Source: Nemertoderma westbladi (lineage: Eukaryota; Animalia; Xenacoelomorpha). From it: 42,448 nucleotides of DNA. The position numbers were made by a program, and so were the translations under genes. The DNA lies in contig JAUCBJ010005154.1 of assembly GCA_032718475.1 (NCBI GenBank), forward strand, positions 1-42,448, read 5' to 3'. The stretch's first letter is position 1; each line of letters begins with the position of its first letter. Positions 16,983 through 42,448 of the stretch are shown here, piece after piece. Below the pieces are notes generated by a model. It did not search any database, was not told the DNA's origin, and saw only the letters and a program-made list of their open reading frames with translations.

Positions 16983-17019
16983 TACAGCTGTACAGGTACA
17001 TGGTTCCCCCCTAAATATA

Positions 17020-19717: not shown

Positions 19718-20234
19718 ACTACACGAAGTGGGGACTTCGCGCAGCACGAAGTTGGCAGAGCCTTAGCGAATTGACACTGTTAGGGGGTAGGTCAATTTAT
19801 GCAAATAGTCACGTTGGCCCTCTAGCGGCAGACTGGAGAACTGCAGATGGATTCGCCTCCTTTGAAAGTCACAGCTAATGGTCTAATACATATCTGCCAA
19901 GTTTCAGCTTAAACGGATTAAAAGCAAAGAAATGGGAGGGCATTTAATGTTTAGACATGTGGCCCTCTAGCGGGAGACCATTGCACTGATGGTGTCTGAA
20001 AGTCTCTCAAAAATCTCAACTTTTGCTCATATTGATACCTACAAATTTTCAACTTGGCAGCTTTAAATCCGACAAAGTTATTAGCATGTCAAAATCGTAA
20101 CGACGACGACGACGACAACGACGACGACGACGACAACGACGACGACGACAACTATTTGCATAAATTGACCCACCCCCTAACAGTGTCAATTCGCTAAGGC
20201 TCCGCCAACTTCGTGGCTCGCCCCACAACACTAA
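19718..20234 (-). mobile_element. Non-autonomous Helentron-associated element (HINE/DINE-1-like)
   Basis: 65-bp subterminal inverted repeats at 19745-19809 and 20151-20215 (2 mismatches), a (GAC)n microsatellite at 20101-20150 just inside one arm, and a short terminal hairpin CGAAGT-GGGG-ACTTCG at 19724-19739 outside the other. This is the known HINE layout. Confidence 0.7.
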
Positions 20235-20479
20235 AGCATTGACCTGTTAAATTACATTCTGAAGTACTGCTGACTAAACCATTTAACAGTGTCATTAATT
20301 AATTAATTCATAATAATTAATAATTAAATGCTTGAGTTAAATGAATTAAAATAATTAATTCATAATAATGCTAGTGGTTGATTATGTTATACGCATGTCC
20401 TTAGACCATCATGATAAAAGATGGGGTGAGGGTAACACACCCTACAGGCTCAAGAAGTCGAGTAAATCCATCCAAGTAT

Positions 20480-21275
20480 CCTATTAGGATACCTAAAGAC
20501 ATTGCTAATATTTAGGATTACTGACAGAATCACTCCTTAGAAGGAGCCCAGAGGTTGAACTCATTGGTGCAGGCGGCTGCTTCTAGTCTTGGTCTTTTTG
20601 TAAACACCAAGAAGACCAAAATGTTGACGGTTAACTTCGACAATCCGCAGAAATATCTGATCTTATGATGATCATAAACTCCAAGGATGGTGAATTGAGC
20701 ATGTGGATGACTTCTGCTATATACTAAGGATGAATTCCAGGTCCTTATCATGGATCCGGAAGTCAGGTGAAGACCTTTTGATACGCAAGGGGAAGCCATG
20801 ATCAGCATCAGCATTGAATGGGCTGACCAGGATTAGAAAGCTGGATTTGAATCAAATAAATAAAATAAAATGCTGTTCGGTCATTTAGAGCAGCATCAGA
20901 ACTAGTACTCCTTTGTATGTGGGTGCCCTCGCTGGGTCCTAACAACGGCTGATGAATGCTACGTCAGGTACATTGTGTCAAGTATAATGAACTCATCTCC
21001 AACCAAACACAGTATTATAACAACATTGGAGCTTGGAGGTGTCTCATTGGACCCCCCAAGCCTAAGGTTGACACTTGAACGGAGCCGCCTCCACTTCGCA
21101 GGACATTACCTTCGCCGTGAGGACCAGCCAGTGCGTAATCTTGTACTTAGGTAGCACCCATGGAGAAAATAAGCACTTTCTTAGACGCCTCTTAAAGGAC
21201 ACTGGCCTAAAAGATGCAGATAATCTCGAGAAAGTCATGGGGGATAGGGAACTGTTGCGGCGCAACTTTGTTGAT
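20480..21275 (+). pseudogene. Decayed 3' part of an RTE/RTEX-like non-LTR retrotransposon (RT thumb and C-terminus), antisense to SAS-6
   Basis: Fragmentary translations AQRLNSLVQAAASSLGLFVNTKKTKMLTVN (~20545-20635), FRAASELVLL (~20885), FAGHYLRREDQPVRNLVL (~21095) and RLLKDTGLKDADNLEKVMGDRELLR (~21185-21260) occur in the usual RTE ORF order, separated by stops and frameshifts. Confidence 0.75.
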
Positions 21276-21744
21276 ATGATAAACCAAAATAACATTTTTA
21301 ATATATTTAAATGCTGCATCCTTTAGTGGTCGATAAATGGGAACCAAGGCAAGTTGGGAAACAGAGTGGAGGGGTTCACTGTGGAAGATCACCCATGGTG
21401 GCTTAACGAGTCTAAAATATTCTCCCATTCATTCAATATATTTAAATGTATCTTTAAACTATGTATAATGCAGCATACCGATAGTAGTAGTACAGGGTTG
21501 ACTACCTTGTAGTAGTAGTAGCAGTAAAAGCATATTTAATAGTATAGTTGTAGTCCAGGCTAGCATATAAATAAAGGAAAATGATATATCCGAGAACAAA
21601 AAGGGATACAGGGGAAGAAGGAACCGCTGGGAGGCCAGAAAATAAGGACATTGTAAAAGGCCTTGTCACATGAATATTTATGTCAACATGACAGTGATAT
21701 AAACGTAAAAATGGGAAGGTAACGGTATTCATTTTGATAAATTT

Positions 21745-21979: not shown

Positions 21980-22520
21980 AACCTGGTTTAGTAGTTCCAT
22001 GTTCTAACGCGGTTCCGTTTAACTGGTTCTTTAGTTCTACGTTCCCCACGCCGTTCCCCCTACCTGGTTCTTTAGTTATAAGTTCCTCACGCCGTTCCAC
22101 CTAAATGTTTTTTTAGTTCTACGTTCCCCACGCCGTTCTCCCTACCTGGTTCTTTACTTCTACGTTCCTCACGACGTTCCACCTACCTGGTTCTTTAGGT
22201 TTACGTTCCTCACGCCGTTCTCCCTACCTGGTTCTTTAGTTCTACGTTCCGCACGCCGTCCCATCTACCTGGTTCTTTAGTCCTACGTTCCTCACGCCGT
22301 TCTCCCTACCTGGTTCTTTAGTCCTACGTTCCTCACGCCGTTCCCCCTACCTGGTTCTTTAGTTCTACGTTCCTCACGCCGTTCCACCTACCTGGTTCTT
22401 TAGTCCTACGTTCCTCACGCCGTTCCCCCTACCTGGTTCTTTAGTTATACGTTCCTCACACCGTTCCACCTACCTGGTTCTTTAGTTATACGTTCCTCAC
22501 GCCGTTCCCCCTACCTGGTT
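21980..22520 (-). repeat. 41-bp minisatellite (~13 copies) whose unit includes the SAS-6 exon 1 splice donor
   Basis: Minus-strand unit GTAGGGGGAACGGCGTGAGGAACGTAGAACTAAAGAACCAG; period 41 (22142, 22183, ...). Copies degrade away from the exon. Confidence 0.92.
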
Positions 22521-23729
22521 TTTTAACTTCACCTTCTGCGCGGCGTTCCGCAGTTCGTTCTGCTGCCGCTTTATTATCTCGTTGGCCTTAATGAGGTCGT
22601 CCGCGGTTGATCGAACGCTTGACTCGAGTTTGTTTACCAACTCGAGTCGCTGTTCGCAGAGCCGTTCCGCCTGACGTTTCTGTTCAGCTGTCGACTCCAA
22701 CAGCAGCCCAGTGGATCTGAGAACCTCCGACTTGTCTTTAACCTCCTGTTCCAGAACGGCGACGCGCGTTCTGTACCCGTTGGCTTCCCGTTGGGATTCC
22801 GCTACACCGTTCCGCAACTCGACCAGCTGTTCCTTCGCGTCTGTGGCCTCGTTCCGCGTACGTTCCGCCTCGTTCCGCGCCGCGTCCAACCGACCCGAGA
22901 GGTCCCGCACCTCCGACTCGCTGGCGTACCGGGATTCCGTCAGCTGGTTGCCGGACTCCTCCAACTCGCGAATCCGTCGCTCTTGCTGCCCGATAACCAA
23001 CTCGAGTTTGGTGGAGACCTCCAGTCGCTCCCTATCGCCAACGGTCCGCAGGTCGCCTAGGGCCGCCACGTAGCGCTCTTTTTCCGCCGCTAATTCCGCC
23101 GCCGATTCAGACCGTAGTTTGGCGCCCTGGGTCGTCCAATCAGAACGGAGTTCCGCTAACTGCGAAGACTTCTCCGCTAACTCCGACTCCCGAAGTCGTA
23201 GTCGTTCCGATAACTCGCCTCTCGTCGAATCTAGAACACGCGACAACTCGCCGCACTCTAGCTTGAGACTCAGCAAACACCCCGCAAGGTATTTCTTTAA
23301 ATCCGAGTCGTTGGCCGCGCGGAGTCGCAGACTCAAATGGGTGAGGTGTTTAAAGGGGTTCGTCTCGACAACGTTAAGGAAACCGCCTCCTAAAGCGATA
23401 CTGAGGAACTTTAGGATGAACTTTGGGTTCTCGGTGCTGTGCTGATCGCGACAAATCTTTAAGAGTTCGATTAATTTAGTCGGAAAGGAAGGGAAGTCTA
23501 CAAGAAGTCCTTGTTCAGATTTCAGTATGTGGAAGTCGTCTTCGCCAAGGTTTATTATGTAGAGGTAGTATGGATCGTTCTCCGACGTTAGTCGGAGAAT
23601 CAACTCCTTTCGATGGGACGGTGTGTCGGTCGTCTGAACCTCCATGTTAACGTTAATTGTTTGTTGACGTTCGATTCCTTCTACTGTTACCAGAGTTATG
23701 TTTATTGCACTGCTATACAGATTCTCCAT
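22515..23729 (-). CDS. SASS6: SAS-6 exon 1 (N-terminal head/PISA domain plus coiled coil); full protein ~598 aa
   Basis: ATG at 23729 (MENLYS). Motifs RLTSENDPYYLY, EDDFHILKSEQGLLVDFPSFPTKLIELL and LNVVETNPFKHLTHLSLRL are diagnostic of the SAS-6 head. A long coiled coil follows; donor at 22515/22514, phase 0. Confidence 0.93.
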
Positions 23730-24354
23730 ATCAAAAATGACACCGAAGCTCAACGTTCAACTTTTTCAACGTTTATGTTCAATTTGCTATATAAATACTG
23801 AAATAAGGTACCGGTAACTGACGGGCTGACGGGTATTTACGATACGATGTTAAATTACGATGAAGTAATATTAAAAAATTATTTGTAATCTTTTGTAAAC
23901 GAATAATGTTAATTGTTTTTGTATTCCCATGGTTTTGAACCGACTGACAACTACATAACTACTGTACCGGTACTGTAAGAAATCGAGGTTGCTTAATGTT
24001 AGATATTTCACCTGCTAGCGGTGGTTAAATTCACATATTTTGATCGTATTTAATGTCCGGTCCTACGAATTACCCCGAAATACCCCAAAACACCAAAAAT
24101 CAAACTCAGGATTTATTAAGTTAAAGGCGACAAAAACTTATGACGAATTATTGTGAATTAATATATAATATAATTATATATGGCAGTAGTATTTGTTAAT
24201 TAACTAAACCCAATACAAATGGTGTCAAATGGTAACAAATAACACCAGACATTAGTGAATATGACAATATAATTGTGATTTACCTGTTTAATACGCAAGG
24301 AGTAGGCAGGCTGCAGGCCTAAGTAAAATTTCCAAGTAATAAAAGTGATTTCCC

Positions 24355-26316: not shown

Positions 26317-28889
26317 CTGCTACCCGAAGGTAGGGCTGGGCGCTACTCCTGTCTGCTACCCGAGGGTAGGGGTGGGCGCTACTCCTATCTGCTACCCGAG
26401 GGTAGGGGTGGGCGCTACTCCTATCTGCTACCCGAAGGTAGGGGTGGGCGCTACTCCTATCTACTACCCGAAGGTAGGGGTGGGCGCTACTCCTATCTGC
26501 TACCCAAGGGTAGGGCTGGGCGCTACTCCTATCTGCTACCCGAAGGTAGGGGTAGACGCTACTCCTATCTGCTACCCGAGGGTAGGGGTGGGCGTTACTC
26601 CTATCTGCTACCCGAAGGTAAGGGTGGGCGCTACTCCTATCCGCTACTCCTATCTGCTACGCGAGGGTAGGGGTGGGCGCTACTCCTATCTGCTACCCGA
26701 GGGTAGGGGTGGGCGCTACTCCTATCTGCTACCCGAGGGTAGGGGTGGGCGCTACTCCTATCTGCTACCCGATAGTAGGGGTGGGCACTACTCCTATCTG
26801 CTACACGAGGGTAGGGGTGGGCGCTACTCCTGTCTGCTACCCGAAGGTAGGGGTGGGCGCTACTCCTATCTGCTACCCGAGGGTAGGGGTGGGCGCTACT
26901 CCTATCCGCTACTCCTATCTGCTACCCGAAGGTAGGGGTGGGCGCTACTCCTATCTGCTACCCGTGGGTAGGGGTGGGCGCTACTCCTATCTGCTACCCG
27001 TGGGTAGGGGTGGGCGCTACTCCTATCTGCTACCCGAAGGTAGGGGTGGGCGCTACTCCTATCTGCTACCCGAAGGTAGGGGTGGGCGCTACTCCTATCT
27101 GTTACCCGAAGGTAGGGGTGGGCGCTACACCCATCTGCTACCCGTGGGTAGGGGTGGGCGCTACTCCTATCTGCTACCCGAAGGTAGGGGTGGGCGCTAC
27201 TCCTATCTGTTACCGAAGGTAGGGGTGGGCGCTACTCCTATCTGCTACCCGAAGGTAGGGGTGGGCGCTACTCCTATCTAATACCCGAGGGTTGGGGTGG
27301 GCGCTACTCCTATCTGTTACCCGAGGGTAGGGGTGGGCGCTACTCCTATCCGCTACTCCTATCTGCTACCCGAAGATAGGGGTGGGCGCTACTCCTATCT
27401 GCTACCCGAAGGTAGGGGTGGGCGCTACTCCTATCTGCTACCCGAGGGTAGGGGTGGGCGCTACTCCTATCTGCTACCCGAGGGTAGGGGTGGGCGCTAC
27501 TCCTATCTGTTACCCGAGGGTAGGGGTGGGCGCTACTCCTATCCGCTACTCCTATCTGCTACCCGAAGGTAGGGGTGGGCGCTACTCCTATCTGCTACCC
27601 GAGGGTAGGGCTGGGCGCTACTCCTATCTGCTACCCGAAGGTAGGGGTAGACGCTACTCCTATCTGCTACCCGAAGGTAGGGGTGGGCGCTACTCCTATC
27701 TACTACCCGAAGGTAGGGGTGGGCGCTACTCCTATCTGCTACCCAAGGGTAGGGCTGGGCGCTACTCCTATCTGCTACCCGAAGGTAGGGGTAGACGGTA
27801 CTCCTATCTGCTACCCGAGGGTAGGGGTGGGCGTTACTCCTATCTGCTACCCGAAGGTAAGGGTGGGCGCTACTCCTATCCGCTACTCCTATCTGCTACC
27901 CGAAGGTAGGGGTGGGCGCTACTCCTATCTGCTACCCGTGGGTAGGGGTGGGCGCTACTCCTATCTGCTACCCGTGGGTAGGGGTGGGCGCTACTCCTAT
28001 CTGCTACCCGAAGGTAGGGGTGGGCGCTACTCCTATCTGCTACCCGAAGGTAGGGGTGGGCGCTACTCCTATCTGTTACCCGAAGGTAGGGGTGGGCGCT
28101 ACACCCATCTGCTACCCGTGGGTAGGGGTGGGCGCTACTCCTATCTGCTACCCGAAGGTAGGGGTGGGCGCTACTCCTATCTGTTACCGAAGGTAGGGGT
28201 GGGCGCTACTCCTATCTGCTACCCGAAGGTAGGGGTGGGCGCTACTCCTATCTAATACCCGAGGGTTGGGGTGGGCGCTACTCCTATCTGTTACCCGAGG
28301 GTAGGGGTGGGCGCTACTCCTATCCGCTACTCCTATCTGCTACCCGAAGATAGGGGTGGGCGCTACTCCTATCTGTTACCCGAAGGTAGGGGTGGGCGCT
28401 ACTCCTATCTGCTACCCGAAGGTAGGGGTGGGCGCTACTCCTATCTAATACCCGAGGGTTGGGGTGGGCGCTACTCCTATCTGTTACCCGAGGGTAGGGG
28501 TGGGCGCTACTCCTATCTGCTACCCGAAGATAGGGGTGGGCGCTACTCCTATCTGTCACCCGAAGGTAGGGGTGGGCGCTACTCCTATCTGCTACCCGAA
28601 GGTAGGGGTGGGCGCTACTCCTATCTGTTACCCGAAGGTAAGGGTGGGCGCTACTCCTATCTGCTACCCGAAGATAGGGGTGGGCGCTACTCCTATCTGT
28701 TACCCGAAGGTAGGGGTGGGCGCTACTCCTATCTGCTACCCGAGGGTAGGGGTGGGCGCTACTCCTATCTGCTACCCGAGGGTAGGGGTGGGCGTTACTC
28801 CTATCTGCTACTCGAAGGTAGGGGTGGGCGCTACTCCTATCCGCTACTCCTATCTGCTACCCGAAGATAGGGGTGAGCGCTACTCCTAT
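26317..28889. repeat. GC-rich minisatellite, 36-bp unit (CTGCTACCCGAAGGTAGGGGTGGGCGCTACTCCTAT), ~70 copies, with a 974-bp higher-order duplication
   Basis: Direct tandem units; identical variant blocks at ORFs 26938 and 27912; occasional 13-bp CCGCTACTCCTAT insertions. Confidence 0.96.
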
Positions 28890-29200
28890 TCCTTGTATTT
28901 TTCCCAGTTATTTAACTGGTACTCAAGATTTATAATATCGTATCTTATTCCTACGAACAGACCAGAGCTTGTTTTAACTGAATTCGGAATTGTTTTAACT
29001 GAACCGAATATTTTAACATAATTTTTAACCGTGTTTTAAAAAATATTTAGATATTTATTATTAAATATATATTTATTAAAAATATTTAAAAAATTTAGAT
29101 ATAGATTATTTTATTCCAAGTTGTTTGACTAGGTAATGTGAACGATACTGTTGTTTCAGCGCCATAGAGTATTCCTATGTAAATTTGGCTCAATATAAAT

Positions 29201-30340
29201 TGTAAAGGCTTTTGCGGAATTGGCCGGTTATTTTCCCCGTAAAGTACTCTGTAGTTGGTTTAACAGGCATAAAAGGCCGTGTCCTTACTGTACTGGTGTT
29301 TTAGAGGACATAAAAGCCATTTCTTCTGTATGTGTACTTTAGCGGACATAATTAGCAATTCTATGACGCAACACGCCGGATCCTCTTGAAACAGTGTAGC
29401 TACCATGACGACGGCTAACAGCTGATATTGCCACATAGAACATCTCTTTGTTCTTTGTTCTCTCTTTGTTCGGTCGACCAATCAGAGCGTTTTTTGCCTC
29501 TGTGTTGGAGATTGTATATAGAAACTAGGGAAGTGAGTCAGTATGTGATTTTGTCCACAGCCTACAACACCGGCGTGGAACCTCCGTGTTTCAGTCTTTA
29601 GCATCAACATTAGTAGGCTTAATTATAGAACGTATATCCGTTATCTCAGTCACTCATAATCATTCATACCTTAACATTACTGCTTTTGCTGTCGGTTATT
29701 CATTATATTTGTTGATAGAATATTATATTTGGAATACTGATCAATAATCAGACACCCCAATCTTCTTGATATACTAAAGGTTAGAGAGACCGGTTACATA
29801 TAACGATTGCGACTTATATTAAGTGGTTTGAAGTGAATCTAATGCTATTTTATAGGCCCTACACGTATTGTCTGTTATTCTCTTTGTATGTGACTAAAAT
29901 TAGTGAAGGTCGGCAGATTGGTGTGCAGCATTGTGCAGCATTGTGTATGATTGTGATTGATAACGAAGCATCTCCTAAAGAATGCGCCATATACGTGAAT
30001 CTATAGCCATCCCATTGTGTCTGGTTTAAGTCATAACTCTGTTTATATATTTAGAGCGCCACGTCCTAAAGGAACTGTTAATATTTCCCGAAAGTGAATA
30101 ATATTGTCAGAGATTATATATATTAAGATCAGTCGAATAATACAGTAGGCCTATCCCGCAATACGATTAGGCTTCCGAATCCAGTCTCCCGGGTATATCC
30201 AGCGGGTGAATGATCGCGCATAGACTGGTTTCGGCTAATGTAGTGTATCAAATATTTGTCGTAGGCTAAATACTATCTATTATCTAGAAGACATCCTAAT
30301 TTGGCAGGTTTAAACTGCTAAAGGTCTGAAAGCGCGAACA
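29201..30340 (+). repeat. 5' LTR (1140 bp)
   Basis: TGTAAAGG...GCGCGAACA; direct repeat of 40484-41622 with about 9 substitutions and 3 single-base indels by eye. CCAAT (~29478) and TATA-like GTATATAG (~29514) motifs. Confidence 0.95.
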
Positions 30341-30353
30341 ATAACGGATATAT
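30341..30353 (+). other. Non-tRNA primer-binding-site position, complementary to the element's own LTR
   Basis: ATAACGGATATA(T) directly abuts the LTR and is the reverse complement of 29633-29644 (12 nt) and of 40915-40927 (13 nt). It does not begin with TGG. Confidence 0.6.
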
Positions 30354-30690
30354 CGTCTAATTGCAGGGTAGGCAATAAATACAGTTTAATATTGTTCTGG
30401 TAAGAACAATAACGGATATAGCTTCTGTATTGCAGTAGGCAATAAAGCTGAAGTACCGGCCAACCGGTACCCAGTAGGCCTGACTACCTAACCACCCGGA
30501 CCGGTACCTACAGCAGTACAGGTACAGTAGTATTATTCGATTTTGATTATTATATACCAGTAGGTCTTAATAATTAATCGGGGATGCCTGGTTTTTATTG
30601 GGATTTTACTTAGGCCTATTTCTGTCAGTTTTATTTATTTGTAGGCTAATATTGAGCAGAAGGCGTGTAAGCCTGCTCAGATTGTACAGA

Positions 30691-31270
30691 CAATTTGTAG
30701 GCTAGACTGTTGTCTGACTGTTGTTAAGTCTGAACGGATTGCAGTGTGTGTAGAGCATCTGTCCGATAAAGTGCTAGTTAGGAACGTAGGGGCTTCAAGT
30801 GCTGTGAGGTAAACCCCCTTTGAAAGAATAAGTCGTACTACTAGGTTAGAACGCATACTAACTAATCATTTCGGAGTCTGCATATACTGTAGTTTATTTA
30901 GGCTTGATAGTAGTCTGCCATCGTTTGGTCTGTACTTTGTTTGTGTAGTCTGTACAGGTAGCGTATAATTCTTATTTAGATAATTTGTAGGCTGGATAGT
31001 TGTCGGGCTGTTGTTAGGTCTGAGGAAATTTCGGTGTGTGTAGAGTGTATGTCCGATAAAGTGCCAGTTGGGAACGTAGGGGCTTCCAGTGCTGTGAGGT
31101 AAACCCCCTCTGAAAGAATAAGTCGTACTACTAGGTTAGAACGCATACTAACTAACCATTTCGGAGTCTGCATATACCGTAGTTTGTTTAGGCTTGATAG
31201 TAGTCTGTCAGTATTTGGTCTGCATTTTGTTTGAGTAGTCTGTACGCGTAGCGTAATATTTATTATTCAG
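30691..31270. repeat. Two diverged 290-bp tandem copies in the element leader
   Basis: AATTTGTAGGCT starts at 30692 and 30982; the central ~130 bp are nearly identical. Confidence 0.9.
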
Positions 31271-32593
31271 AGTTTATGCTATTATTCGCAACATTCATAT
31301 CCCCAAGTTTATTCCTACAGTAATTGTGCTTGTTATACATACCGTTATAGTTAAACTAACTCCGGTACTACATCAGGGCTGCTCGGCGTAGGTAAAGACT
31401 GGAGATTTTATGCTTTGGTCACTCCGGCAGATACCGTGGTTCTTTTAGCTGTTCAAGTATTTTTAACTACTGATTATTTGTTGTACAAGTACTTGTACCT
31501 AATTTAGGGTTTAGTGTACAGTGCTTTCCGAAGGTAATTAGCGTGTAGGCAGTATATTTGTGTTGTAAAGTGGTTAATAGGCACGTTGGTTCTGGTAGAC
31601 CGCGGTAATTAACTTCTGGGTAGGAACACTCCGTGATACATAACGTAGTACTTATAGCGATACGGCTATAAGTCGTCAGACGGTGGTATTTTCCTATCTG
31701 GACAACGCAGTATATTTACTACTACTTATTATTTTCAAATACCGTAGTACTCTGTCTGTTGTAATAACCAGATATTCTAACCCTTTGTTAGGCTGGTTTG
31801 TAGACTTCTTGTAAAATTACCCTAAAAATTCGTACTTGTAAATTTTTGTGTTTATTTAGAGATTGTAATCTCAACCCGAATTGTACGTAATTTGTAGTAT
31901 TAAGTAACTTAGGTAAATTAGAATTATTTGTTTTAGTGTCCAACAAGTAGCACTCCACTGAGAGCGCACAGCTTCTGTGTAGTGACTCCCCCAGAAATAA
32001 TAACATTTATTTCAAATATTGACAAAAACCCATTAAACGGGTATATATATTATAAATCAACTCAAACGATTTATAAATAGTAGGCCTGCCATACAACAAC
32101 TAGGTCTCAATATCAGTTGGACTACTGCTTAAATAACGGTAATAAAGTAAGTAAAGTAACCAAGTAACCCCTAAAATTTCAGAAATTCAATTATTCCAAA
32201 ATAATTGACATACCGGTATTCACGATAGGCTTATTATATTTATTTCTATAAATTTAGGCTGAAATCATACCGGTATTCTGTAATTAATTCTAGTTCATAA
32301 TTATACTTATATATATTCTATAAGTGTAAGCTGTATACCGGTATTCACGATAGGCCTATTATATATTTATATATATTTGTGCTGAAATTGCATACCGGTA
32401 TTCTGTGACAAACCTAGTCTGTAATAATACTTATATATACTATAAGCATACCGGTATTCTAATATATTGTATATATATCACATTACATAGAGTAACGATA
32501 TCGGTAATTAATTACTAGGCTAACAGTGATACTGAATTACTAGACTTGCTTTAACTGTAATATAGCAGTAGGCATTCAACTGTACAATCAAAC

Positions 32594-34084
32594 ATGTCTG
32601 ACTCACAACAAACACTGTCAGATAGTCTCATAGAAAGTGTTAGAATGACTGTTAGACAGTGTCTTAAAAAGATCTGTGACCAAGATCAAAGTATAGAACA
32701 TCCCAGACCAAAGTCTAAGTCCCCTCCTACTGTAAGAAAGGCCATCCCTACAGTAGTAGTGTCAGACCCTAGACTAGTAGAACACCGTAGGTCTATCATA
32801 GGCACTAGAGCTCAGGTCAAGCGGGACCAAGAAGTAGCGAAACAGCAACCACCCGCGAGCCGAGAACTTATTTCTCAACGGCCCGACAGCTCCAGTAGTG
32901 AGGATACTGTAGAGCTGACACCCGAGCGCGGAGCAAAGATGACGGATGCGGTTTATTCGGATCCCCTTCTCATCCTTCCTGCAGCCGTACTCACTAGGGT
33001 ATTGATTGCGGTGGAAGAACACCAGATCGATTGGGCGAGAAGTAAGCGATCGACTAAAGATAGTTATGCGGGATACACAAGGGAAGAACTGAAGTCTATT
33101 GTCGAGTCGCAATGGAACTTCCCCGGACCCGGACTCCCGTTTGATTTATCAGAAGCTGCCTGGGAAGATATACACAGGATGGGAGTAACCAAGGAAACCA
33201 TCGATCCAGCTGTGTGGAAGAGGTCCGCAGCCGGATACATACAGGGATTCGTCAGCTCTATGGAGCGATTAGAAAAACAACTGTTTCAACAACCCCAAGG
33301 ACCTCAAGAGCAGGGACAGCTGCTTTATCAAGTTAGAGAAAGAATTCTACGAATCAGGCTAATCTTATCGGCCTTTGAGGAGGCTTCTAAAAGAAGACAA
33401 GACACGTCGTTGCAAGTTGCCGTAAAGACTTGGTTTCAACGGGTGAGCCTCCAGGTGCAAGGAACGACTCAGTGGAAAGCCCAGCTGGATGAACGCTCAA
33501 CCCATGGAGAATCAACAGACGCTACTTTTTCCCAAGTGGAAAGTGAAGCGGCGGCAGAGAAGCCGCATAAGAGGGATGCCATTGACATCTATCTGTCGGA
33601 CTATCAACGTTTTGTAGGAGATGAAGAGTTGAGGAGAAGACTAGAGGGGCTTAGCCCTAATAGTGAAGGAGCCCAGCGTGTGTTGGACGCAATCGATGTG
33701 GATAGGTTAGCTGCGAACCAAGCTAAATTCAATGAAAGCATCCGCATCGCTAAGGTTCAAGAAGAACAAGTAAAGAAAAAACGTATAGAAGATAGAAAGA
33801 CAGCAGCAGCGACAGTGGCAGCGGCAGAAGCGGATAGAAAAGCGGCAGAAGCAAAAGCGGCAGCTGCAGCAGCCGAAGCGGAAAGAAAAATAGCAGTGGC
33901 AGAAGCAGAACGGAGGGCATCTAAAGAGACAACCCAACTAGAGTTGGAAAATCTTCAAGAGAGGCAAGACAACTTTAATAAACAGTTAACAGCTAGTAAT
34001 ATGCAGATGATGAATCGATTTACTCCCAAAAGACAAGGTTATACATCATCTGAGGAAGGCGATCCACCAGAGGCGGGTAAATGA
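32594..34084 (+). CDS. Element ORF1, 496 aa, unknown function, C-terminal Ala/Glu/Lys coiled coil (possibly a separated Gag N-terminal region)
   Basis: Uninterrupted ORF with CAAACATG start context; no domain recognised. Confidence 0.75.
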   Translation: MSDSQQTLSDSLIESVRMTVRQCLKKICDQDQSIEHPRPKSKSPPTVRKAIPTVVVSDPRLVEHRRSIIGTRAQVKRDQEVAKQQPPASRELISQRPDSSSSEDTVELTPERGAKMTDAVYSDPLLILPAAVLTRVLIAVEEHQIDWARSKRSTKDSYAGYTREELKSIVESQWNFPGPGLPFDLSEAAWEDIHRMGVTKETIDPAVWKRSAAGYIQGFVSSMERLEKQLFQQPQGPQEQGQLLYQVRERILRIRLILSAFEEASKRRQDTSLQVAVKTWFQRVSLQVQGTTQWKAQLDERSTHGESTDATFSQVESEAAAEKPHKRDAIDIYLSDYQRFVGDEELRRRLEGLSPNSEGAQRVLDAIDVDRLAANQAKFNESIRIAKVQEEQVKKKRIEDRKTAAATVAAAEADRKAAEAKAAAAAAEAERKIAVAEAERRASKETTQLELENLQERQDNFNKQLTASNMQMMNRFTPKRQGYTSSEEGDPPEAGK

Positions 34085-35784
34085 TCTCGCTAAGCAGACG
34101 TAAAAGAATGTCCCACCGTCAGAAATTGCCTGATTTGCCCCCAGCTGTTAGAAGGCAACTAAATAACACAAACTTAGGTAGTACAGAACCCACAGACCAA
34201 ATAATTAAAATAGAAAGACTCCCTACTATAGTAGATGAGCCTGAAATAATTAGGCCTGTTCTTGAAATCACCCCTTCGGTGATAGAGACACCTGTACTCC
34301 CAGAACCTACCTTTAAATTCCCTTTACACAGCACCAAATTATCTGTGCCTAGAGGAACAGCCCCTGAAACAGTGTCGGTCCTGGACTCCGAGCGAAATAT
34401 AAAGGATATATCGCCCGTAGTCCCTCGTCTGCCCGCTACGACGTTGGCGGATCCCGCTTCGGCGGTTGATTGGGTAGACGAGAGACGGCGGGAGATGGAC
34501 ATTCTCCTCGGAGAGATGAAGGAGAATCGAGTGCGCTCCTCCCAACAGGTCCGAGAGTTAGAAGGGACTGTTCAACAGTTAAAGGGAACCGTAAAGGAAA
34601 GTAGGTTAGAGTTGCAAGAAGTGCAGCAAAGTATCGCGCTAGAACGCGATAAATTAGTAAATTTACAAAAGGGTATATCACCACCCTCTGTAACAATATG
34701 TCAACCCGTTAGGTCTGAAGTATCTCATGCGCAAGGTGTGGAGCCTACACGCATCTATACTGCTAGCGAAGTAGAAACTCCTATAGTAAACCCTATTAAG
34801 GGTAATTATAGACCTGTTGATAGTGATATTCCCTATAGACCTGATCATAATCCGAGAAATTTATATACCGATAACTCGATATTAAATAACACGATGGCCC
34901 AAGAAAGTTTTACGCGTCAAATGGCTAGAACCGAAGCCCGCCAAGCGGTAAAGGTGGGAGAGATAGTCAAGTTCAATGGAGATGAGATGAAATGGTTACC
35001 TTTTAATGAATATTACAAAGATAACATACAGAACTCTGTGCTATCTAATGGAGAGAAACTTAGATTCCTCATCGAGTGCTTGGAAGGATCTCCCAAGTTA
35101 ATGGCGTTAAAGTTTATTGGACATCCAGACGGATTAAGACAAGTTTGGGATACACTAAACATCAGGTATGGTAATAGGAATAACATAGCTGGGTATTTGT
35201 ATGCAAAGTTGGTAGCGCCCCGAAAGTTTATTAGCAGCGGGATTATAGAGTTTTCCGATGAGATTCAGGAGATCTGCAGACAATTAGATTGGCTAGGTAA
35301 GTCTCATGAGTATCAGAGTGCTATGGTTATTAGAGCAGTGGCTTCTACTTTACCGAAGGGTGGAGTAGGTACACGCTGGGACAAGAAAGTGTTATATATG
35401 ATGGAACAACAACAACGAGACCCTACCATGGCTGATCTCATGTCATTCTTGGATGGCGAAGTGAAATTACAGCTCATAAAGCAGTCCAGAGAGAAGACAC
35501 CGGAAAACAAGGTAAGTGAGAAACCCGTCTCTAGGAGAAAGGTAACACCAGTGTGTTATACAGACGACGGCGAAAGCCAGACTTCTCAAGGAGAGGATAG
35601 CGGGAAAGACACTGAAAGATCTTATTATGTCAATAAAACGCCTAAAGAACAGGTAAGTAAATTCAAGTCTCGAACCAATGACAGGAGAGAACAGGTAAGA
35701 AAAACTCCTCCTACGTCTCCCAAGAGAATTCAGGTGAGAAAGCCCGAAGAAAGAACGAGTGTGCACAACTGTTACTCAAAGTAA
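34081..35784 (+). CDS. gag: BEL/Pao Gag (coiled coil plus DUF1759-like capsid region), 567 aa
   Basis: KFNGDEMKWLPFNEYYKDNIQNSVLSNGEKLRFLIECLEGSPK...VWDTLNIRYG and PTMADLMSFLD match BEL/Pao Gag motifs. Confidence 0.85.
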   Translation: MISLSRRKRMSHRQKLPDLPPAVRRQLNNTNLGSTEPTDQIIKIERLPTIVDEPEIIRPVLEITPSVIETPVLPEPTFKFPLHSTKLSVPRGTAPETVSVLDSERNIKDISPVVPRLPATTLADPASAVDWVDERRREMDILLGEMKENRVRSSQQVRELEGTVQQLKGTVKESRLELQEVQQSIALERDKLVNLQKGISPPSVTICQPVRSEVSHAQGVEPTRIYTASEVETPIVNPIKGNYRPVDSDIPYRPDHNPRNLYTDNSILNNTMAQESFTRQMARTEARQAVKVGEIVKFNGDEMKWLPFNEYYKDNIQNSVLSNGEKLRFLIECLEGSPKLMALKFIGHPDGLRQVWDTLNIRYGNRNNIAGYLYAKLVAPRKFISSGIIEFSDEIQEICRQLDWLGKSHEYQSAMVIRAVASTLPKGGVGTRWDKKVLYMMEQQQRDPTMADLMSFLDGEVKLQLIKQSREKTPENKVSEKPVSRRKVTPVCYTDDGESQTSQGEDSGKDTERSYYVNKTPKEQVSKFKSRTNDRREQVRKTPPTSPKRIQVRKPEERTSVHNCYSK

Positions 35785-37072
35785 GGTAAGTAACATCAAA
35801 CCAAAATGTGTGCTGTGCGACGGGCCCCACCGTTTGAATATGTGTGATAAATTCCTAAAGAAATCATTAAAGGATAGACGTGAAGTCATGTGGGATAAGC
35901 GGTTGTGTTATAATTGCCTCAGACGAGGACACCAACGGCGAACCTGTTACTCCGACGCAAGGTGTGCAAAGTGCGGCGCAAAACATCATATCTTGTTGCA
36001 CACGGAATTCGAACGAAACAGCCCGAGTCAGGTAAGTGAGTCCGAACTACATGTCCAATTCAGTGATGTGAACGACACTGACCAATATTCTGAGATGGAA
36101 GGATTCTATACGGACGAATTCTCCGACGAAAACGAATCCTGTTACCTGACAAATACCGCAGTGTATCGAGCACTTACGTATGAAAAGGACACCGACAGCG
36201 AGCTCCCCCTAACTACTTCTGACAGACAACCATCTTGGAAAGCACCAACTTCCAATGTAGGAATCCGAGAATTTCCTGTAGTACAGTTAAGGGTCCACGG
36301 ACCTACAAGGAGTTATATAGTGAACGCCCTCCTTGACTCCGGTAGCACAGGAACATTCATCGACAAAGAACTAGCCGAAGACATCTTTGCTGGACAACCC
36401 AAGTTCCGAACTAAGCTAAACATGTCAGGAATTATGCAGGTTTGGAAATCTACCGTAATAGCGGATTATTATGTAGGCGCGTTGTCCACCCCCCAGGATG
36501 AACTAGGAGAACACAGCATAAGGTCAGTAAAAATGGTAGCGATAAAGAACTTCGCGACCAGCCAAGTGGAACCTTATAACTGGGATGAGGACGATTTCAC
36601 CCAGCAGCTTGAAATACCTAGATTCAACACCGATTACCCTGGAGTCCAAATACTCATCGGTCAAAATGCGCATGAAGCGCTCGAGACATTGGAGAAACGG
36701 CCTGCTCAACCGCAACCACTACAAGTCTATGCGGGAAGAACTAGAGTAGGTTGGTACTTTACTGGCCCTTCTCGTAGAACTCTTATGGAAAGATTACCAA
36801 AAGAACAGGTATATCAATTAAGTGAACGGGAAGTGGAGAGCAGTGAAGTTGACGACCCAACTGAGGGAACACCATACTCCTCAGATAATGACGACATCAA
36901 CTCCAATGTAGATCAATGGAGACATTGCCCCGAGACGATCAATCTAGCCGACATCGCCTCCAGAGGAGCAACTCCTCAAGAACTGACAGATACTCCAGAC
37001 TGGTTAGGTGGACCCGACTTCCTAAGTAAAGAAGATGAATGGCCTCCCCATCTTACCCCGGCTGAAGATTAG
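35759..37072 (+). CDS. Gag zinc knuckles plus aspartic protease, fused in frame to a Pao RNase H C-terminal remnant; +1 frame relative to gag
   Basis: CVLCDGPHRLNMC, CYNCLRRGHQRRTC and CAKCGAKHHILLH; VNALLDSGSTGTFI and VQILIG; QWRHCPETINLADIASRG...WLGGPDFL...WP. No ATG at the 5' end (the track start is GTG). Confidence 0.85.
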   Translation: MCTTVTQSKVSNIKPKCVLCDGPHRLNMCDKFLKKSLKDRREVMWDKRLCYNCLRRGHQRRTCYSDARCAKCGAKHHILLHTEFERNSPSQVSESELHVQFSDVNDTDQYSEMEGFYTDEFSDENESCYLTNTAVYRALTYEKDTDSELPLTTSDRQPSWKAPTSNVGIREFPVVQLRVHGPTRSYIVNALLDSGSTGTFIDKELAEDIFAGQPKFRTKLNMSGIMQVWKSTVIADYYVGALSTPQDELGEHSIRSVKMVAIKNFATSQVEPYNWDEDDFTQQLEIPRFNTDYPGVQILIGQNAHEALETLEKRPAQPQPLQVYAGRTRVGWYFTGPSRRTLMERLPKEQVYQLSEREVESSEVDDPTEGTPYSSDNDDINSNVDQWRHCPETINLADIASRGATPQELTDTPDWLGGPDFLSKEDEWPPHLTPAED

Positions 37073-37145
37073 ACAGGCCAAGGGAGCGGAGAAAGTAACA
37101 CAACCACTCAATCGCCCAGCTGGTCGTTTATGTTTACTGGAAAGA
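37065..37145 (+). pseudogene. Remnant of the BEL/Pao integrase extreme C-terminus (DUF5641-like end)
   Basis: LNRPAGRLCLLE at ~37107-37142 resembles the RPxxKLxxLE motif that ends BEL/Pao Pol. Confidence 0.6.
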
Positions 37146-37761
37146 GACCGAAAACTGTCCGGAAACTATGGAAGGCAAGATACTCTTCCCACGACCACCT
37201 CCCTAATCCAACAAATATCTAGGGACTCCATAACGTAACAACATACGGAGTGGGTGTGTGACTATATTATTTTATATTTATTTTTATTATTTTATATTAT
37301 GTATGTATTATTATGTAATTTTATTATAATCGTTTTCTTTAATTTTATTTAGTAGAATGTTATTTTAGCGATTATTTAGTAGATTAGTGCAATATATATT
37401 AGTGTTTATTACTTAATTACTTATATATATATATTTAGTGCGACGGCGAGAAATAATTCTTTTTCTCTTTCCTTACTGTCCGTATCATATTATAAATACG
37501 TGACTACAGTAAGATGAAATATCCGTACTTATTAAAGTACAATAAAGCCACTACTATATTCAAGTATTATTGGTAGGCAGAGTATTAGGAATGCAAAGTT
37601 CAGATCCTCGTGTCTCGGCTAAACCAAGCTCTGGGTAGACCTTGGAAACGACTTGCCTCTTCTCACTGACATTGCTTCGTGCGATATTGCTCTCATACCG
37701 TATATTAAATAATACATATAGTAGCGTGATGTCCCTTTAACAGTAGCGTAAAACGCAAAAT

Positions 37762-38073
37762 AAATCTGTTAAACCCTTTGACCATCTGTAATTCTAGTCG
37801 ATTAAGATATCGCGGCACCCACCGATATACTTGAAAGACAAAATTCTAGAATCAGTGGTTAACGTCCCCAGACAAGTTCTGGAATAAACTGGTGCCCATC
37901 CTAAATATTAATTATTAATATTTATAAAATCTGTCAAATTTCAGATCCTTTAAAATTCTAGTCGATTAAGATATCGTAGCACTTACCGATACTCTTAAAA
38001 AGATCAAATTCCTAGAATCAAGGATCCCAGTCCCCAGACATGTTCTGGAATAAAATTGTGTCTATTTAATATT
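37762..38073. repeat. Two diverged ~164-bp tandem copies, each with hairpin potential
   Basis: ATTCTAGTCGATTAAGATATCG at 37791 and 37955; CCCCAGACA.GTTCTGGAATAAA in both copies. Confidence 0.85.
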
Positions 38074-38694
38074 AAATAATAAAATTACGGGAATAAATTT
38101 AAATTCATCTTTTAATGAATTTGATAAATTGTTATTTTATACAATTTATAATATTCCCAAAATTCCATTAATTAATAGATCATGGGAGCGGAGATTCACC
38201 TATTAAGTGTATTAGTGTGCGAGAATCTCCAATATAGAGTCAATAGCCGATAAAATTCATAAAATCATGTATAGAGAGGATATTGACAATTAAAGAATTA
38301 CTATTAAATAGCATCCCAGATCTGTATGCATGAGAATTACCCTAATTCTACCGCTAGCTTTCCATAATGTCACCATGGCAACAACCACGCTAGAATTAGA
38401 AGTGAGTTAAAAGAACAATAAAAAGCTTGCTCATTGAATAGCATACGGAATAAATAGCACACCGCTAGTATCCAAGGATACATAATAACAACGTGACATT
38501 CTGGAAGGCACTTGACTAACGGACAAATGACCCGAATGTGTGATAGAATGTGTACCATTTGTGACAGTTACGTGGAATTTGTGCGTTTGTAGGTGAATGT
38601 TACTACTAAGGTGTGTTTACAGTAGCGAGTCGCAATTGTGAAAGTAGCCCTAACTCTCCAGTAAGAACCTGAAGTATATCTAAGCCTTTGGGAC

Positions 38695-38800
38695 GGACAG
38701 TGGAGTGACTTGTGCCGGTTATCGTTGTCGTTGTGTAGCTACATCGTTGGCGAAAGCACAGCGACGACGGTACATCGGCGCTGAGGATCTCGCACTGTCC
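38695..38800 (+). other. Long G-U-rich RNA hairpin upstream of the accessory ORF
   Basis: Nested pairings GGACAGTG/CACTGTCC, GAG/CTC, GTGCCGG/TCGGCGC, ATCGTTGTCGTTGTGT/GCACAGCGACGACGGT and GCTA/TGGC. Confidence 0.7.
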
Positions 38801-39019
38801 GGGGGCAGAGAGGGGTAGGCAGCGACGCCCGCTCGCCTAAATATAAACTCATTATAATATGGATAAACTTATATAGCAGATATGATTGAGTTGATAGAAG
38901 ATGATCTTGGTATCAGGGAGCGATATACTCTACCTTTACAAGCGTTTGTTGATAGCTTGATACGCGGCGACGCTGGTCCAACTACTACGGAGGACGATGG
39001 TCGTTATATCTAACCGCCA

Positions 39020-40012
39020 ATGTCCCGGGAGCAACTTGCGCGTGGGTTGGACTGTAGAAAATTCATCGCTCGCTATACACATCGTAATGGTACGTATATG
39101 GACTTCTTAACTACTGGTCATCCTATTGACCTACACGATACGAACGATATAGACACCAAAAGGGAAATGGTTTTATTTAAATATCATACCCAGCGGAAGC
39201 GGAACGATAAACTGAGACTCGAACACGAAAATTCTATTCGAAACCAACTCGAAAGTGCAGATGTTGAAGAGCCGGATAAACGCAGCGACTTCACCAGGTG
39301 CCTGGAATTCTTGAGAGAGGCCTATCTCGATATTGCCGGTCAACAGAATCTAGAGACTCGATATCCTCAAGGTATACATCATGACCGCATAGTAGAACTC
39401 AAACGGCTCTATTCCACTATGATGTATCTTACCGCCGATCGACCGCTAACTGTTGTACCGGATAGCTTCGAACAGATGGAGGAATATTGTAAAACTGGAG
39501 AACGATCACCCGCGTTTCCCCTACAAGACGTGCGTCTTTGGTATTATTGCAATGAATGCCCAAGACCCAACCAACAAACGAAAAGACATAAACATCCGCG
39601 GAGACGTTGCTTTAAACACGGTTTTACTCGCCATATTTACGGGAGTTTCGAGCGAAACTTGTTCGATGTATCACCTACGCTCGTTCGACTCAGACGATCC
39701 TTAAATAAACCAATGATCAGAGTTTCGGAATACTCGATCAGATCTCCTCATTCCCTAGTGAGACCTCAGACTCTTGATCCTATTAGTATGACGGATCCTC
39801 CCGAGCTGTACTCACTACTCAAAGATCTAGTGTTACCTGAACAATTAGTCGGTGGCACCCCGGTTGTGGGCTTCCTAGATATTAGCCCATACTACCTAGC
39901 CGGATTGGGACGCGGACATTTAATATCGCCGTTTAACCCTTACCATCGTCCCGGCTTAACACGATATAACCTGTCACCAAAGTGGCGGAGAGCGTTGTAC
40001 CAAATGAGTTAG
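39020..40012 (+). CDS. Accessory ORF in the env position, 330 aa, unknown soluble protein with a possible CxxC...CxxH metal site
   Basis: Long ORF with CCGCCAATG context; no signal peptide or TM segment visible. An in-frame 43-codon ORF (38882-39013) precedes it, separated by one TAA. Confidence 0.65.
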   Translation: MSREQLARGLDCRKFIARYTHRNGTYMDFLTTGHPIDLHDTNDIDTKREMVLFKYHTQRKRNDKLRLEHENSIRNQLESADVEEPDKRSDFTRCLEFLREAYLDIAGQQNLETRYPQGIHHDRIVELKRLYSTMMYLTADRPLTVVPDSFEQMEEYCKTGERSPAFPLQDVRLWYYCNECPRPNQQTKRHKHPRRRCFKHGFTRHIYGSFERNLFDVSPTLVRLRRSLNKPMIRVSEYSIRSPHSLVRPQTLDPISMTDPPELYSLLKDLVLPEQLVGGTPVVGFLDISPYYLAGLGRGHLISPFNPYHRPGLTRYNLSPKWRRALYQMS

Positions 40013-40474
40013 ACGCCATTCTACAAAGATCAGAAAAGGAACTTACGCTTGTTCAGATAAACGTAAATTGCACTAGCAAGTCCAAGCGGTAAACAAAGTA
40101 ACTATATCTCAGTTCGATCGGGAAATCCAGAATCTCTAAGAAGTTATCGAACTTGGACGATCCTATTCTCTGCGAGAGTTTTTGGATGAACGTATCCAGC
40201 TACGAGCGGAGGAAAATCAGCTCGAGGAGAAGCATATCGAAACGGCGGATACCTCGACCATAATCCTACACCTTCTGATGCAATCATATTGCACCCTTCA
40301 CCCAGGAGTTATGGCCCTCCTAGTAAAGTGGCTCCCCCCAAAGAGAAAAGGACTCTTGCTAGCCTCAAAAAACTGCGTAAACGCCGTCTGCGTAAGAAAG
40401 GCTAACTGTTTAGAGTATTTTTATATTTTAGAAACTGTGATTTGTTATATTTTATAGACTTAAATCCCATTTTC

Positions 40475-40483
40475 TGGGAGCGG
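40475..40483 (+). other. Short purine-rich tract (PPT position) before the 3' LTR
   Basis: TGGGAGCGG immediately precedes TGT at 40484. Confidence 0.5.
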
Positions 40484-41622
40484 TGTAAAGGCTTTTGCGG
40501 AATTGGCCGGTTATTTTCCCCGTAAAGTACTCTGTAGTTGGTTTAACAGGCATAAAAGGCCGTGTCCTTACTGTACTGGTGTTTTAGAGGACATAAAAGC
40601 CATTTCTTCTGTATGTGTACTTTAGCGGACATAATTAGCAATTCTATGACGCAATACGCCGGATCCTCTTGAAACAGTGTAGCTACCATGACGACGGCTA
40701 ACAGCTGATATTGCCACGTAGAACATCTCTTTGTTCTTTGTTCTCTCTTTGTTCGGTCGACCAATCAGAGCGTTTTTTGCCTCTGTGTTGGAGATTGTAT
40801 ATAGAAACTAGGGAAGTGAGTCAGTATGTGATTTTGTCCACAGCCTACAACACCGGCGTGGAACCTCCGTGTTTCAGTCTTTAGCATCAACATTAGTAGG
40901 CTTAATTATAGAACATATATCCGTTATCTCAGTCACTCATAATCATTCATACCTTAACATTACTGCTTTTGCTGTCGGTTATTCATTATATTTGTTGATA
41001 GAATATTATATCTGTTATACTGATAACAATCAGACACCCCAATCTTCTTGATATACTAAAGGTTAGAGAGACCGGTTACATATAACGATTGCGACTTATA
41101 TTAAGTGGTTTGAAGTGAATCTAATGCTATTTTATAGGCCCTACACGTATTGTCTGTTATTCTCTTTGTATGTGACTAAAATTAGTGAAGGTCGGCAGAT
41201 TGGTGTGCAGCATTGTGCAGCATTGTGTATGATTGTGATTGATAACGAAGCATCTCCTAAAGAATGCGCCATATACGTGAATCTATAGCCATCCCGTTGT
41301 GTCTGGTTTAAGTCATAACTCTGTTTATATATTTAGAGCGCCACGTCCTAAAGGAACTGTTAATATTTCCCGAAAGTGAATAATATTTGTCAGAGATTAT
41401 ATATATTAAGATCAGTCGAATAATACAGTAGGCCTATCCCGCAATACGATTAGGCTTCCGAATCCAGTCTCCCGGGTATATCCAGCGGGTGAATGATCGC
41501 GCATAGACTGGTTTCGGCTAATGTAGTGTATCAAATATTTGTCGTAGGCTAAAGACTATCTATTATCTAGAAGACATCCTAATTTGGCAGGTTAAACTGC
41601 TAAAGGTCTGAAAGCGCGAACA
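40484..41622 (+). repeat. 3' LTR (1139 bp)
   Basis: Direct repeat of 29201-30340, followed by the TSD TAAAT. Confidence 0.95.
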
Positions 41623-42191
41623 TAAATTATTTTTATTATTATTAACAGATATAAAGGTTATTTTATATACATAAGTAAAGCTGAGAAATCTGCGCATCTA
41701 ATAGTACATAAATTATTAAAATCCGTTCAAAAAACTCAAATGGTAGCGGTTTAGATATGATGATTCCTAAAATAAATAACTACTAGCAAAAATCAGAAAG
41801 TAGGCCTCAACTGGTATTTCCGAATAAACAGTTTCCAGTCCTGGTATAAATTAATATTCTACTGTAGAAGTCCATGGAAAGTTAGAAAAGGTAAAATAAT
41901 CTTGAAAAAAAGCTCAAAAAATAGCTTGAAAAAAAGCTCAAAAAATAGCTCAGAATACCTCACATAAAAAAGTAGCGCAGAAACGTTGAGTTTTTTTTTA
42001 CGAGCTGGTATTTTTTTAAATAAAAAAAATTTATATTGTTTTGAGTGTTTTTTTGATATTGATGAATGTTCTAGAACCTTTAAAAAAATATTATATTCTG
42101 GAATTTTAGTAATATAAAATATTACTGAATAAATGAAAAATGTAGTTGTTTTTTTCTTAATACTAATCTCTTAATCTTAATACTAAACTTT

Positions 42192-42448
42192 TGGGGCTGG
42201 GGGGCTACTGTCCGGGGGGCTACTATTTTTTTTTGGGGGGGGGGGGGGGGGCTACTATTTTTTTTTTTTGGGGGGGGGGGGGCTACTGTTCGGGGGGCTA
42301 CTGTCCGGGGGGCTACTGTTCGGGGGGCTACTGTCTGGGGGGCTACTGTCCGGGGGGCTTCTGTCCGCGGGACTACTGTCCGGGGGCTACTTCCGGGTGG
42401 CTACTGTCCGGGGGGCTATTGTCCGGGGGGCTACTGTCCGGGGGCTAC
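42192..42448. repeat. G-rich ~15-bp tandem repeat (GGGGGGCTACTGTCC) with homopolymer expansions; runs off the window end
   Basis: Repeated GGGGGGCTACTGTCC units with G runs of 5 or more, giving G-quadruplex potential. Confidence 0.9.

Follow-up and report, generated by a model that had tools for sequence, protein, structure and literature searches.

Structure of the element and of its insertion

The window, the whole 42,448-nt stretch analysed here, comprises positions 1-42,448 of contig JAUCBJ010005154.1 from Nemertoderma westbladi (GCA_032718475.1), and all coordinates are window positions. At 29201-41622 it contains a long terminal repeat (LTR) element of 12,422 nt (about 15.4 kb if the lost pol is added back), which is derived from BEL/Pao, retains Gag and protease, and appears to belong to a large family with two deletions in pol. 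The insertion is delimited by the following features.

29196..29200 (+): left copy of the target-site duplication (TSD), TAAAT
29201..30340 (+): 5' LTR, TG...CA, 1140 nt
40476..40483 (+): polypurine tract (PPT), 8 nt, adjoining the 3' LTR
40484..41622 (+): 3' LTR, TG...CA, 1139 nt
41623..41627 (+): right copy of the TSD, TAAAT (5 bp)

Between the two LTRs there are 9 substitutions and 3 gaps of one base each (0.8% difference; Kimura two-parameter (K2P) distance 0.008), and given this distance and the TSD on both sides, this is a young insertion with precise ends. The near-identical LTRs and the intact TSD had been reported in a first-pass annotation made from the sequence alone, which called the element young; this holds for the insertion, but the family to which it belongs is, to judge from far more diverged contigs that carry the same joins, old.

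Two deletions in pol

The coding features relevant to the missing pol are as follows.

34081..35784 (+): ORF1, 567 aa, capsid part of Gag, with DUF1759 at about 34972-35355
35738..35784 (+): first frame break, between capsid and zinc knuckles, where the frames of ORF1 and ORF2 differ
35738..37072 (+): ORF2, 444 codons, with Cys/His boxes, aspartic protease, acidic linker and RNase H remnant
36899..36907 (+): join 1, at which about 515 codons (reverse transcriptase (RT) and most of RNase H) are gone and the frame is still open
36908..37096 (+): RNase H remnant, the last part of that region
37097..37106 (+): join 2, at which about 490 codons (nearly all of integrase) are gone
37113..37142 (+): Pol C-terminal motif RPAGRLCLLE, with the frame ending at 37238

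DUF1759 is detected in ORF1 above the Pfam cut-off (E 3e-11), and ORF2 contains Cys/His boxes at 35807-36001 and the protease motif DSG at 36335; the Pfam match of the protease itself (E 0.0015-0.009) is below the cut-off. Retention of Gag and protease, as proposed in the first-pass annotation, is thus borne out, and so is the loss of RT, RNase H and integrase: RT and integrase have no match anywhere in the element, and only the end of RNase H is left. Eighteen long BEL/Pao relatives align to the Gag, zinc-knuckle, protease and RNase H-end stretches, with no RT or integrase core. The RNase H-end remnant aligns with 17 of these 18 proteins, all that gave a match there, in agreement with the earlier claim that the protease frame runs into the RNase H end, and the tail motif RPAGRLCLLE matches the C-terminal motif of the long relatives; Pfam detects neither the remnant nor the tail motif alone. 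In the long relatives, a median of 573.5 residues (n=64) separates the protease end from the RNase H-end motif and a median of 555 residues (n=43) separates this motif from the tail, versus 59 and 65 residues here, so that instead of a full set of RT, RNase H and integrase after the protease there are remnants only, in the expected order. The total loss from pol amounts to about 1,000 codons, or 3 kb. By its sequence, the element is a BEL/Pao derivative and not an autonomous member.

Both deletions postulated earlier are real, although the second lies at 37097-37106 and not near 37060, and the first at 36899-36907, compared with a noted position of about 36890. The first was said to leave the frame open, which it does in the window copy; at join 2, the frame is presumably open in other copies. 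The tail motif had been placed a few codons further along the protease frame; it lies in a third frame in the window copy, with a second frame break at about 37060-37070. The Gag and protease ORFs had been described as free of internal stops; in this copy, the capsid and the zinc knuckles with the protease are in different frames (break at about 35740-35785).

Most likely, the pol remnants were kept since the deletions had to spare the frame and the natural C-terminus. The suggestion that these scraps are cis-acting RNA signals finds no support: the few differences found there are synonymous or of three bases, which points to a constraint on the reading frame, an RNA role being the less likely reading. 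In seven proteins from the databases (P0028, P0036, P0145, P0113, P0020, P0121 and P0070), the distance from protease to RNase H is short, which looked like evidence of an ancient shared deletion; they were rejected because each is a gene model from NCBI/nr without a second member, and such models may skip decayed DNA by splicing.

The family in public contigs and a longer form

Six of the seven public sequencing runs listed, from four studies, hold part of the element; X1 or X2 is perhaps the source of the window. None of the runs holding it is on record as RNA; X5 is only guessed to be RNA. Contigs from five runs were compared, with the whole element over 29100-40483, in 30 bins (for X1, with tables listed in part), and with the joins over 36250-37300 in X3, X4, X5 and X6. 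All 30 bins are covered, mostly by sequences 90-99% alike, with 118,903 contigs matching 29100-40483 in X1, 31,127 in X3, 1,068 in X4 and 719 in X5, summed depth not being equal to copy number. The fraction of contigs in X3 that fit only partly is 5.7% in the region of the joins (159 of 2,771) versus 5.6% across the whole element (1,728 of 31,127). The share that runs on unlike across 36250-37300 is 0 (rounded) in X3, 0.13 in X4, 0.10 in X5 and 0.67 in X6 (4 contigs). Loose ends at join 2 comprise 2-5 contigs per row, compared with 12-47 contigs carrying neighbouring variants. A variant at 37102, inside join 2, is present in three X4 contigs up to 60 letters from the contig end; variants beside join 1 lie up to 68 letters from the end in X4 (36895) and up to 48 in X5 (36898), and one X4 piece that is 81% alike (36 differences over 190 nt) continues 10 letters beyond join 1. 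Flat depth across the joins was set aside as evidence; it is weak because full-length copies would cover both sides too.

The insertion is 0.8% old, whereas the joins are entered or crossed by contigs with only 81-93% likeness, so the deletions should predate it. The two-join element appears to be a large family with contigs about 81-99% alike, most of which cross both joins. In several studies, the joins are crossed by contigs that differ from the window copy far more than its LTRs differ from each other, and the longer form departs at precisely these points, which argues for a lineage and not for decay at one locus; the lineage reading of the first-pass annotation, for which deletions unique to this locus had been named as the refutation, therefore survives.

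Only fragments of the longer form are available. Its loose ends at join 1 are found behind 36894 (X6) and 36898 (X4 piece 16, with 227 further letters) and before 36908 and 36909 (X3, X5); at join 2, they are found behind 37096 (three contigs each in X3, X4 and X5) and before 37101 and 37107 (X3, X5). Because these ends cluster at the jumps in homology, on the expected sides, the joins were placed at 36899-36907 and 37097-37106. In addition, a 556-nt X3 contig (depth 9.7) fits only at 36908-37053, with about 86% likeness, and is flanked there by 285 and 122 unlike letters. This minority form, less abundant than the joined form in X3 and X4, seems to keep pol and is a candidate helper.

With respect to the frame breaks, the first is crossed by four contigs among those listed, and the length differences of all four keep one frame; at the second, most of the depth in X4 and X5 differs in length from the window copy. 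Two breaks within 4.5 kb of coding DNA would fit post-insertion decay, because the LTRs have gained three one-base gaps. At about 40190-40405 (+), a short frame with a strongly basic end lies just before the PPT; in X4, the depth of this last bin greatly exceeds that of the others, which suggests that the 3' end is common to the element and a shorter, abundant relative.

Synonymous bias and probable selection on the reading frame

The substitution lists give 40 of the 329 differences in 36250-37300 and 40 of the 2,133 in 29100-40483. Among the differences listed for ORF2 (the one at 37102, past its stop, was left out), 27 of 39 are synonymous, compared with an expected 0.31 for the same change types (p 1.3e-6, treating sites as independent); 29 of the 39 fall in third positions and none creates a stop. 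By part of ORF2, the synonymous changes are 19 of 24 in the protease, 6 of 13 in the linker and 2 of 2 in the RNase H remnant. The bias is also seen at sites that X6 does not cover (9 of 10 synonymous) and where at least 79% of the X3 depth differs from the window copy (9 of 14). None of the 12 indels listed for 29100-40483 (from 305) lies in the ORFs, which make up 48% of this stretch; the 12 listed for 36250-37300 (from 28) consist of six compensating single-base pairs, three of three bases, two at the break and one outside. The synonymous bias in the protease region fits with selection acting on the protein.

Primer site and leader

Upstream of the coding region, the following features are recognised.

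29515..29542 (+): candidate TATA and initiator-like motif
29633..29644 (+): candidate self-primer in the 5' LTR, a complement of the first 12 bases behind this LTR
30341..30352 (+): predicted primer-binding site, flush with the 5' LTR and without the TGG start of tRNA-type sites
30341..32593 (+): non-coding leader, 2.25 kb, with a 290-bp tandem duplication (30687-31271) and duplications of about 115 bp (32210-32446)
30404..30446 (+): second copy of the LTR end and primer site, 87% alike, with the 12-mer at 30409-30420

Primer sites for tRNA typically start with TGG after the 5' LTR; no start of this type is found directly after the 5' LTR here. Nor is an 18-nt primer site complementary to tRNA-Arg or tRNA-Gly, of the kind described for BEL/Pao, evident there, though an internal match to a host tRNA may exist; the sequence scan found no tRNA, and Rfam gave only two chance miRNA matches. 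The 12 bases that follow the LTR are instead complementary to a stretch within it, at offset 0, with pairing that stops exactly at the LTR boundary; in the 3' LTR, the complement (40916-40927) extends to 13 bases. Only 2 of 10,132 internal 12-mers have a complement in the LTR, namely the site abutting the LTR and the duplicate at 30409. The candidate TATA and initiator-like motifs at 29515-29542 stand upstream of the candidate primer.

The site agrees with the working definition of self-priming elements in PMC6317226 (at least 10 complementary bases, 0-5 nt after the 5' LTR). On balance, the element can be predicted to prime reverse transcription with its own LTR RNA. The duplicate at 30404-30446 lies 68 nt downstream, preceded by a small hairpin; it is possibly a relic of a slip of reverse transcription, or a decoy site. 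This unusual primer site was absent from the first-pass annotation, as were the two frames at 32594-34084 and 39020-40012 without homologues.

Additional reading frames and relatives of the proteins

Two ORFs and a non-coding stretch complete the internal region.

32594..34084 (+): ORF0, 496 aa, with a coiled-coil-like C-terminal stretch
37239..39013 (+): AT-rich non-coding stretch including a 164-bp duplication (37790-38086)
39020..40012 (+): ORF4, 330 aa, occupying the env position

The stop codon of ORF0 overlaps the start of ORF1 as ATGA, an arrangement that a rough count gives about a 1.5% chance of arising from a random break. Because a random break rarely produces this overlap, the likelier reading of ORF0 is that of an upstream gene in its own right, coupled to ORF1 by stop-start; weak coiled-coil matches to Gag N-termini (E 0.001-0.02) make a single long Gag formed by ORF0 and ORF1 possible, and none of the contigs listed crosses the junction between them. 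No homologues of ORF0 or ORF4 above the cut-off are found in Pfam, in a search of proteins of near length or in Atlas, and PHROGs yields only two weak ORF0 matches (E 0.016-0.03). A single-sequence structure model of ORF4 has no confident fold (pLDDT 34.9) and was not used for a fold search; a 330-nt part of this ORF is skipped in some copies, and we read ORF4 as an accessory gene or one in decay. A cluster of splice-donor-like motifs, seen by eye at 35509-36035 around the boundary of capsid and zinc knuckles, could yield a Gag-only or an ORF4 message.

None of the five window proteins is present in the protein collection searched, and no close relatives are found: the best of the 18 long matches is 59% identical over 16% of ORF2, and the best 150 of 10,693 representatives are 27-49% identical. 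The long matches carry Pao Pfam families and have Gag and Pol in one frame. Metagenome and viral scans gave 130 and 6 pattern matches, respectively, none confirmed, and the LTR-end pattern gave none.

Proposed mechanism and its alternatives

Taken together, these observations are best compatible with the view that the element is a frame-broken young copy of a BEL/Pao family with two deletions; the family probably makes its own Gag and protease, is likely to borrow RT and integrase, and is predicted to prime itself. Unbroken copies would be transcribed from the LTR into an RNA encoding one Gag-protease-remnant protein. By analogy with the mouse intracisternal A particle (IAP) element 1Δ1, this protein could favour packaging of its own RNA in cis, and such a preference would explain selection on the Gag-protease protein. 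The Gag-Pol of a rarer full-length helper may co-assemble and supply RT and integrase; the helper RNase H would cut the self-primer as in Tf1, after which RT would copy the RNA, and the helper integrase would insert the DNA, making the 5-bp TSD.

Several observations weigh against this interpretation. The window copy has two frame breaks and cannot itself make the full protein. Of the 25 coding differences in the whole-element list, only 7 are synonymous, which is near neutral (ORF0 2 of 6, ORF1 3 of 6, ORF2 0 of 1, ORF4 2 of 12); most of them are sites at which the window copy stands apart from almost all other copies. Selection is therefore indicated for the protease region only and not for ORF0, ORF1 or ORF4, and the synonymous signal may in part come from divergence between the joined and the longer form. 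The family is represented by short, unphased contigs, among which there is no second insertion site, whole copy or helper. None of the 28 pieces listed bridges join 1 by 31 letters (the best reaches 21 beyond), and the distances from contig ends may count unaligned letters; the loose ends described come from the 20 of 158 loose-end rows that were listed. The candidate helper need not be intact; in X5, the joined form and the one continuing beyond 37096 have roughly equal depth, and the four contigs of X6 seem to come from longer forms only. As for self-priming, the LTR 12-mer is paired in the predicted fold with the duplicate at 30409 (probability up to 1.0 or 0.68), the predicted pairing with the site at 30341 being 0; folds of 800-900 nt are unreliable. 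Furthermore, transcription from the clearest promoter-like motifs would begin some 90 nt upstream of the 12-mer, unlike in Tf1.

Some of these points would suit a passive passenger that is mobilised wholly in trans, with an idle Gag-protease frame and a synonymous bias inherited from an ancestor or caused by comparison with the longer form. The near-neutral whole-element list, the broken frames of the window copy and the impossibility of phasing the contigs with the joins can be cited for it. Against it stand the synonymous changes at high-depth X3 sites and outside the X6 coverage; indels among copies avoid ORFs or preserve the frame, and the breaks fit decay after insertion. A pure passenger seems unlikely. 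A bolder reading makes the old, high-copy lineage one half of a two-part replicon independent of tRNA, in which selected Gag-protease elements build the particle and carry two accessory genes, and rare full-length partners supply RT and integrase, with the partner's RNase H cutting the self-primer from the dependent RNA in trans; this is a doubtful possibility. In a division of labour, a single-ORF helper producing Gag and Pol in equal amounts would receive most of its capsid from the abundant Gag-protease elements, and the two forms would be a two-part replicon instead of a parasite and its host. This would be in line with the selection on the protease region, the presence of both forms in the same runs and the single Gag-Pol frame of the long relatives; no benefit to the helper is evident here, though, and in X3 and X4 the helper is outnumbered, as a parasitised master would be, which leaves this scheme improbable.

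Decay at this locus, the copying of a single dead element at the DNA level or a fault in the assembly could be invoked because the element stands beside satellite arrays and no second insertion site is seen. This explanation is largely refuted, and hardly credible, given the element's own TSD, the 99.2% likeness of its LTRs, the far more diverged contigs crossing the joins in independent studies and the codon-position bias. Regarding the origin of the joins, splicing of a parent RNA followed by reverse transcription would be in line with two deletions that both appear to preserve the frame and with the donor-like motifs, frequent by eye at 35509-36035; these motifs are not at the joins, and this route is very improbable.

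Comparison with known systems

The closest known counterparts of the N. westbladi element are the plant TR-GAG and GAG/PROT families and IAP 1Δ1, the latter being the closest working model. Terminal-repeat retrotransposons with a GAG domain (TR-GAGs) are described as having LTRs, a primer site, a PPT and at least two copies, lacking RT, RNase H and integrase, and being no longer than 4 kb, with a single Gag ORF and no protease similarity; one was observed transposing (PMC4350172, PMC8704663). In sugar beet, 28-29 families contain GAG/PROT only (PMC13570524). The element resembles both groups in its LTRs, primer site, PPT, multiple copies, retained Gag and missing RT, RNase H and integrase. These plant elements belong to copia or gypsy, whereas here an animal BEL/Pao derivative has two in-frame pol remnants and two orphan ORFs; unlike the TR-GAGs, it is 12.4 kb long and has a protease and extra ORFs. 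The comparison with TR-GAGs made in the first-pass annotation holds in part; that with large retrotransposon derivatives (LARDs) is poor, as these exceed 4 kb but are non-coding, whereas the present element is long but coding, with synonymous bias.

IAP 1Δ1 similarly has an internal deletion that leaves a fused open frame; it needs proteins in trans, its fusion protein acts in cis, and it outnumbers the full-length form among new insertions (PMC6466679). It is, however, an endogenous retrovirus (ERV) of the betaretrovirus-like kind, with one deletion that takes out parts of gag and pol, whereas the present family has kept gag and protease entire, both of its deletions being inside pol, and a cis effect would be an analogy. 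A primer site by the 5' LTR that is complementary to an LTR stretch is shared with Tf1/Tj1/sushi, Tcn1 and TAR, which are of gypsy/copia lineages, the Tf1 primer being the 5' end of the RNA (PMC4600332, PMC6317226). By contrast, self-priming here would involve a BEL/Pao derivative with a duplicated primer site and a need for RNase H in trans.

The profile of Belpaoviridae of the International Committee on Taxonomy of Viruses (ICTV) includes a length of 4.2-10 kb, LTRs of 0.2-1.2 kb, a full pol and an 18-nt tRNA-Arg/Gly primer site (PMC8742986). The element agrees with this family in LTR size, PPT, DUF1759 Gag, Cys/His boxes, protease and the order of the pol remnants (PMC8742986, PMC3118150, PMC7642597), and departs from it in length, pol and primer site. 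Defective BEL-Pao copies are known in mosquitoes (PMC7642597); general background is given in PMC3601003, PMC3286476 and PMC10089650. Among the open-access papers listed by the searches, none was seen to describe a Gag-protease BEL/Pao family under selection, and none to deal with BEL/Pao self-priming.

LTR families that keep Gag and lack the enzymes are documented in plants and, in another shape, among mammalian ERVs. RT-based annotation cannot see families of this kind, which nevertheless appear abundant in the present case. A protease under selection in an enzyme-borrowing element raises a testable question on cis preference and on the Gag-to-Pol ratio in single-ORF retrotransposons, and the primer site contradicts the tRNA priming of the ICTV profile and, given that the element has no RNase H of its own, would require primer cutting in trans.

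Surroundings of the element

A SAS-6 gene is present at 22497-23756 (-) and 17738-18334 (-) (Pfam SAS-6_N, E 2e-30); by eye, it continues across an intron with a 41-bp array and reaches an exon near 18320 that encodes a coiled coil. An exon of a carnitine/choline acyltransferase gene is found at 1743-2459 (+) (E 1.7e-74). A 9-kb satellite at 3054-12093 consists of 274 copies of a 33-bp unit, in sub-arrays about 2,990 nt apart, and a 36-bp satellite at 26317-28847, with a 108-bp higher order, stops 350 nt before the element. Paired, MITE-like terminal inverted repeats are located at 14551-14826, 16338-16984 and 19745-20215. By eye, decayed remains resembling the RT and C-terminus of a non-LTR retrotransposon are seen at about 20450-21300 (+), and a G-rich 15-bp tandem repeat occupies the end of the window (42170-42448).

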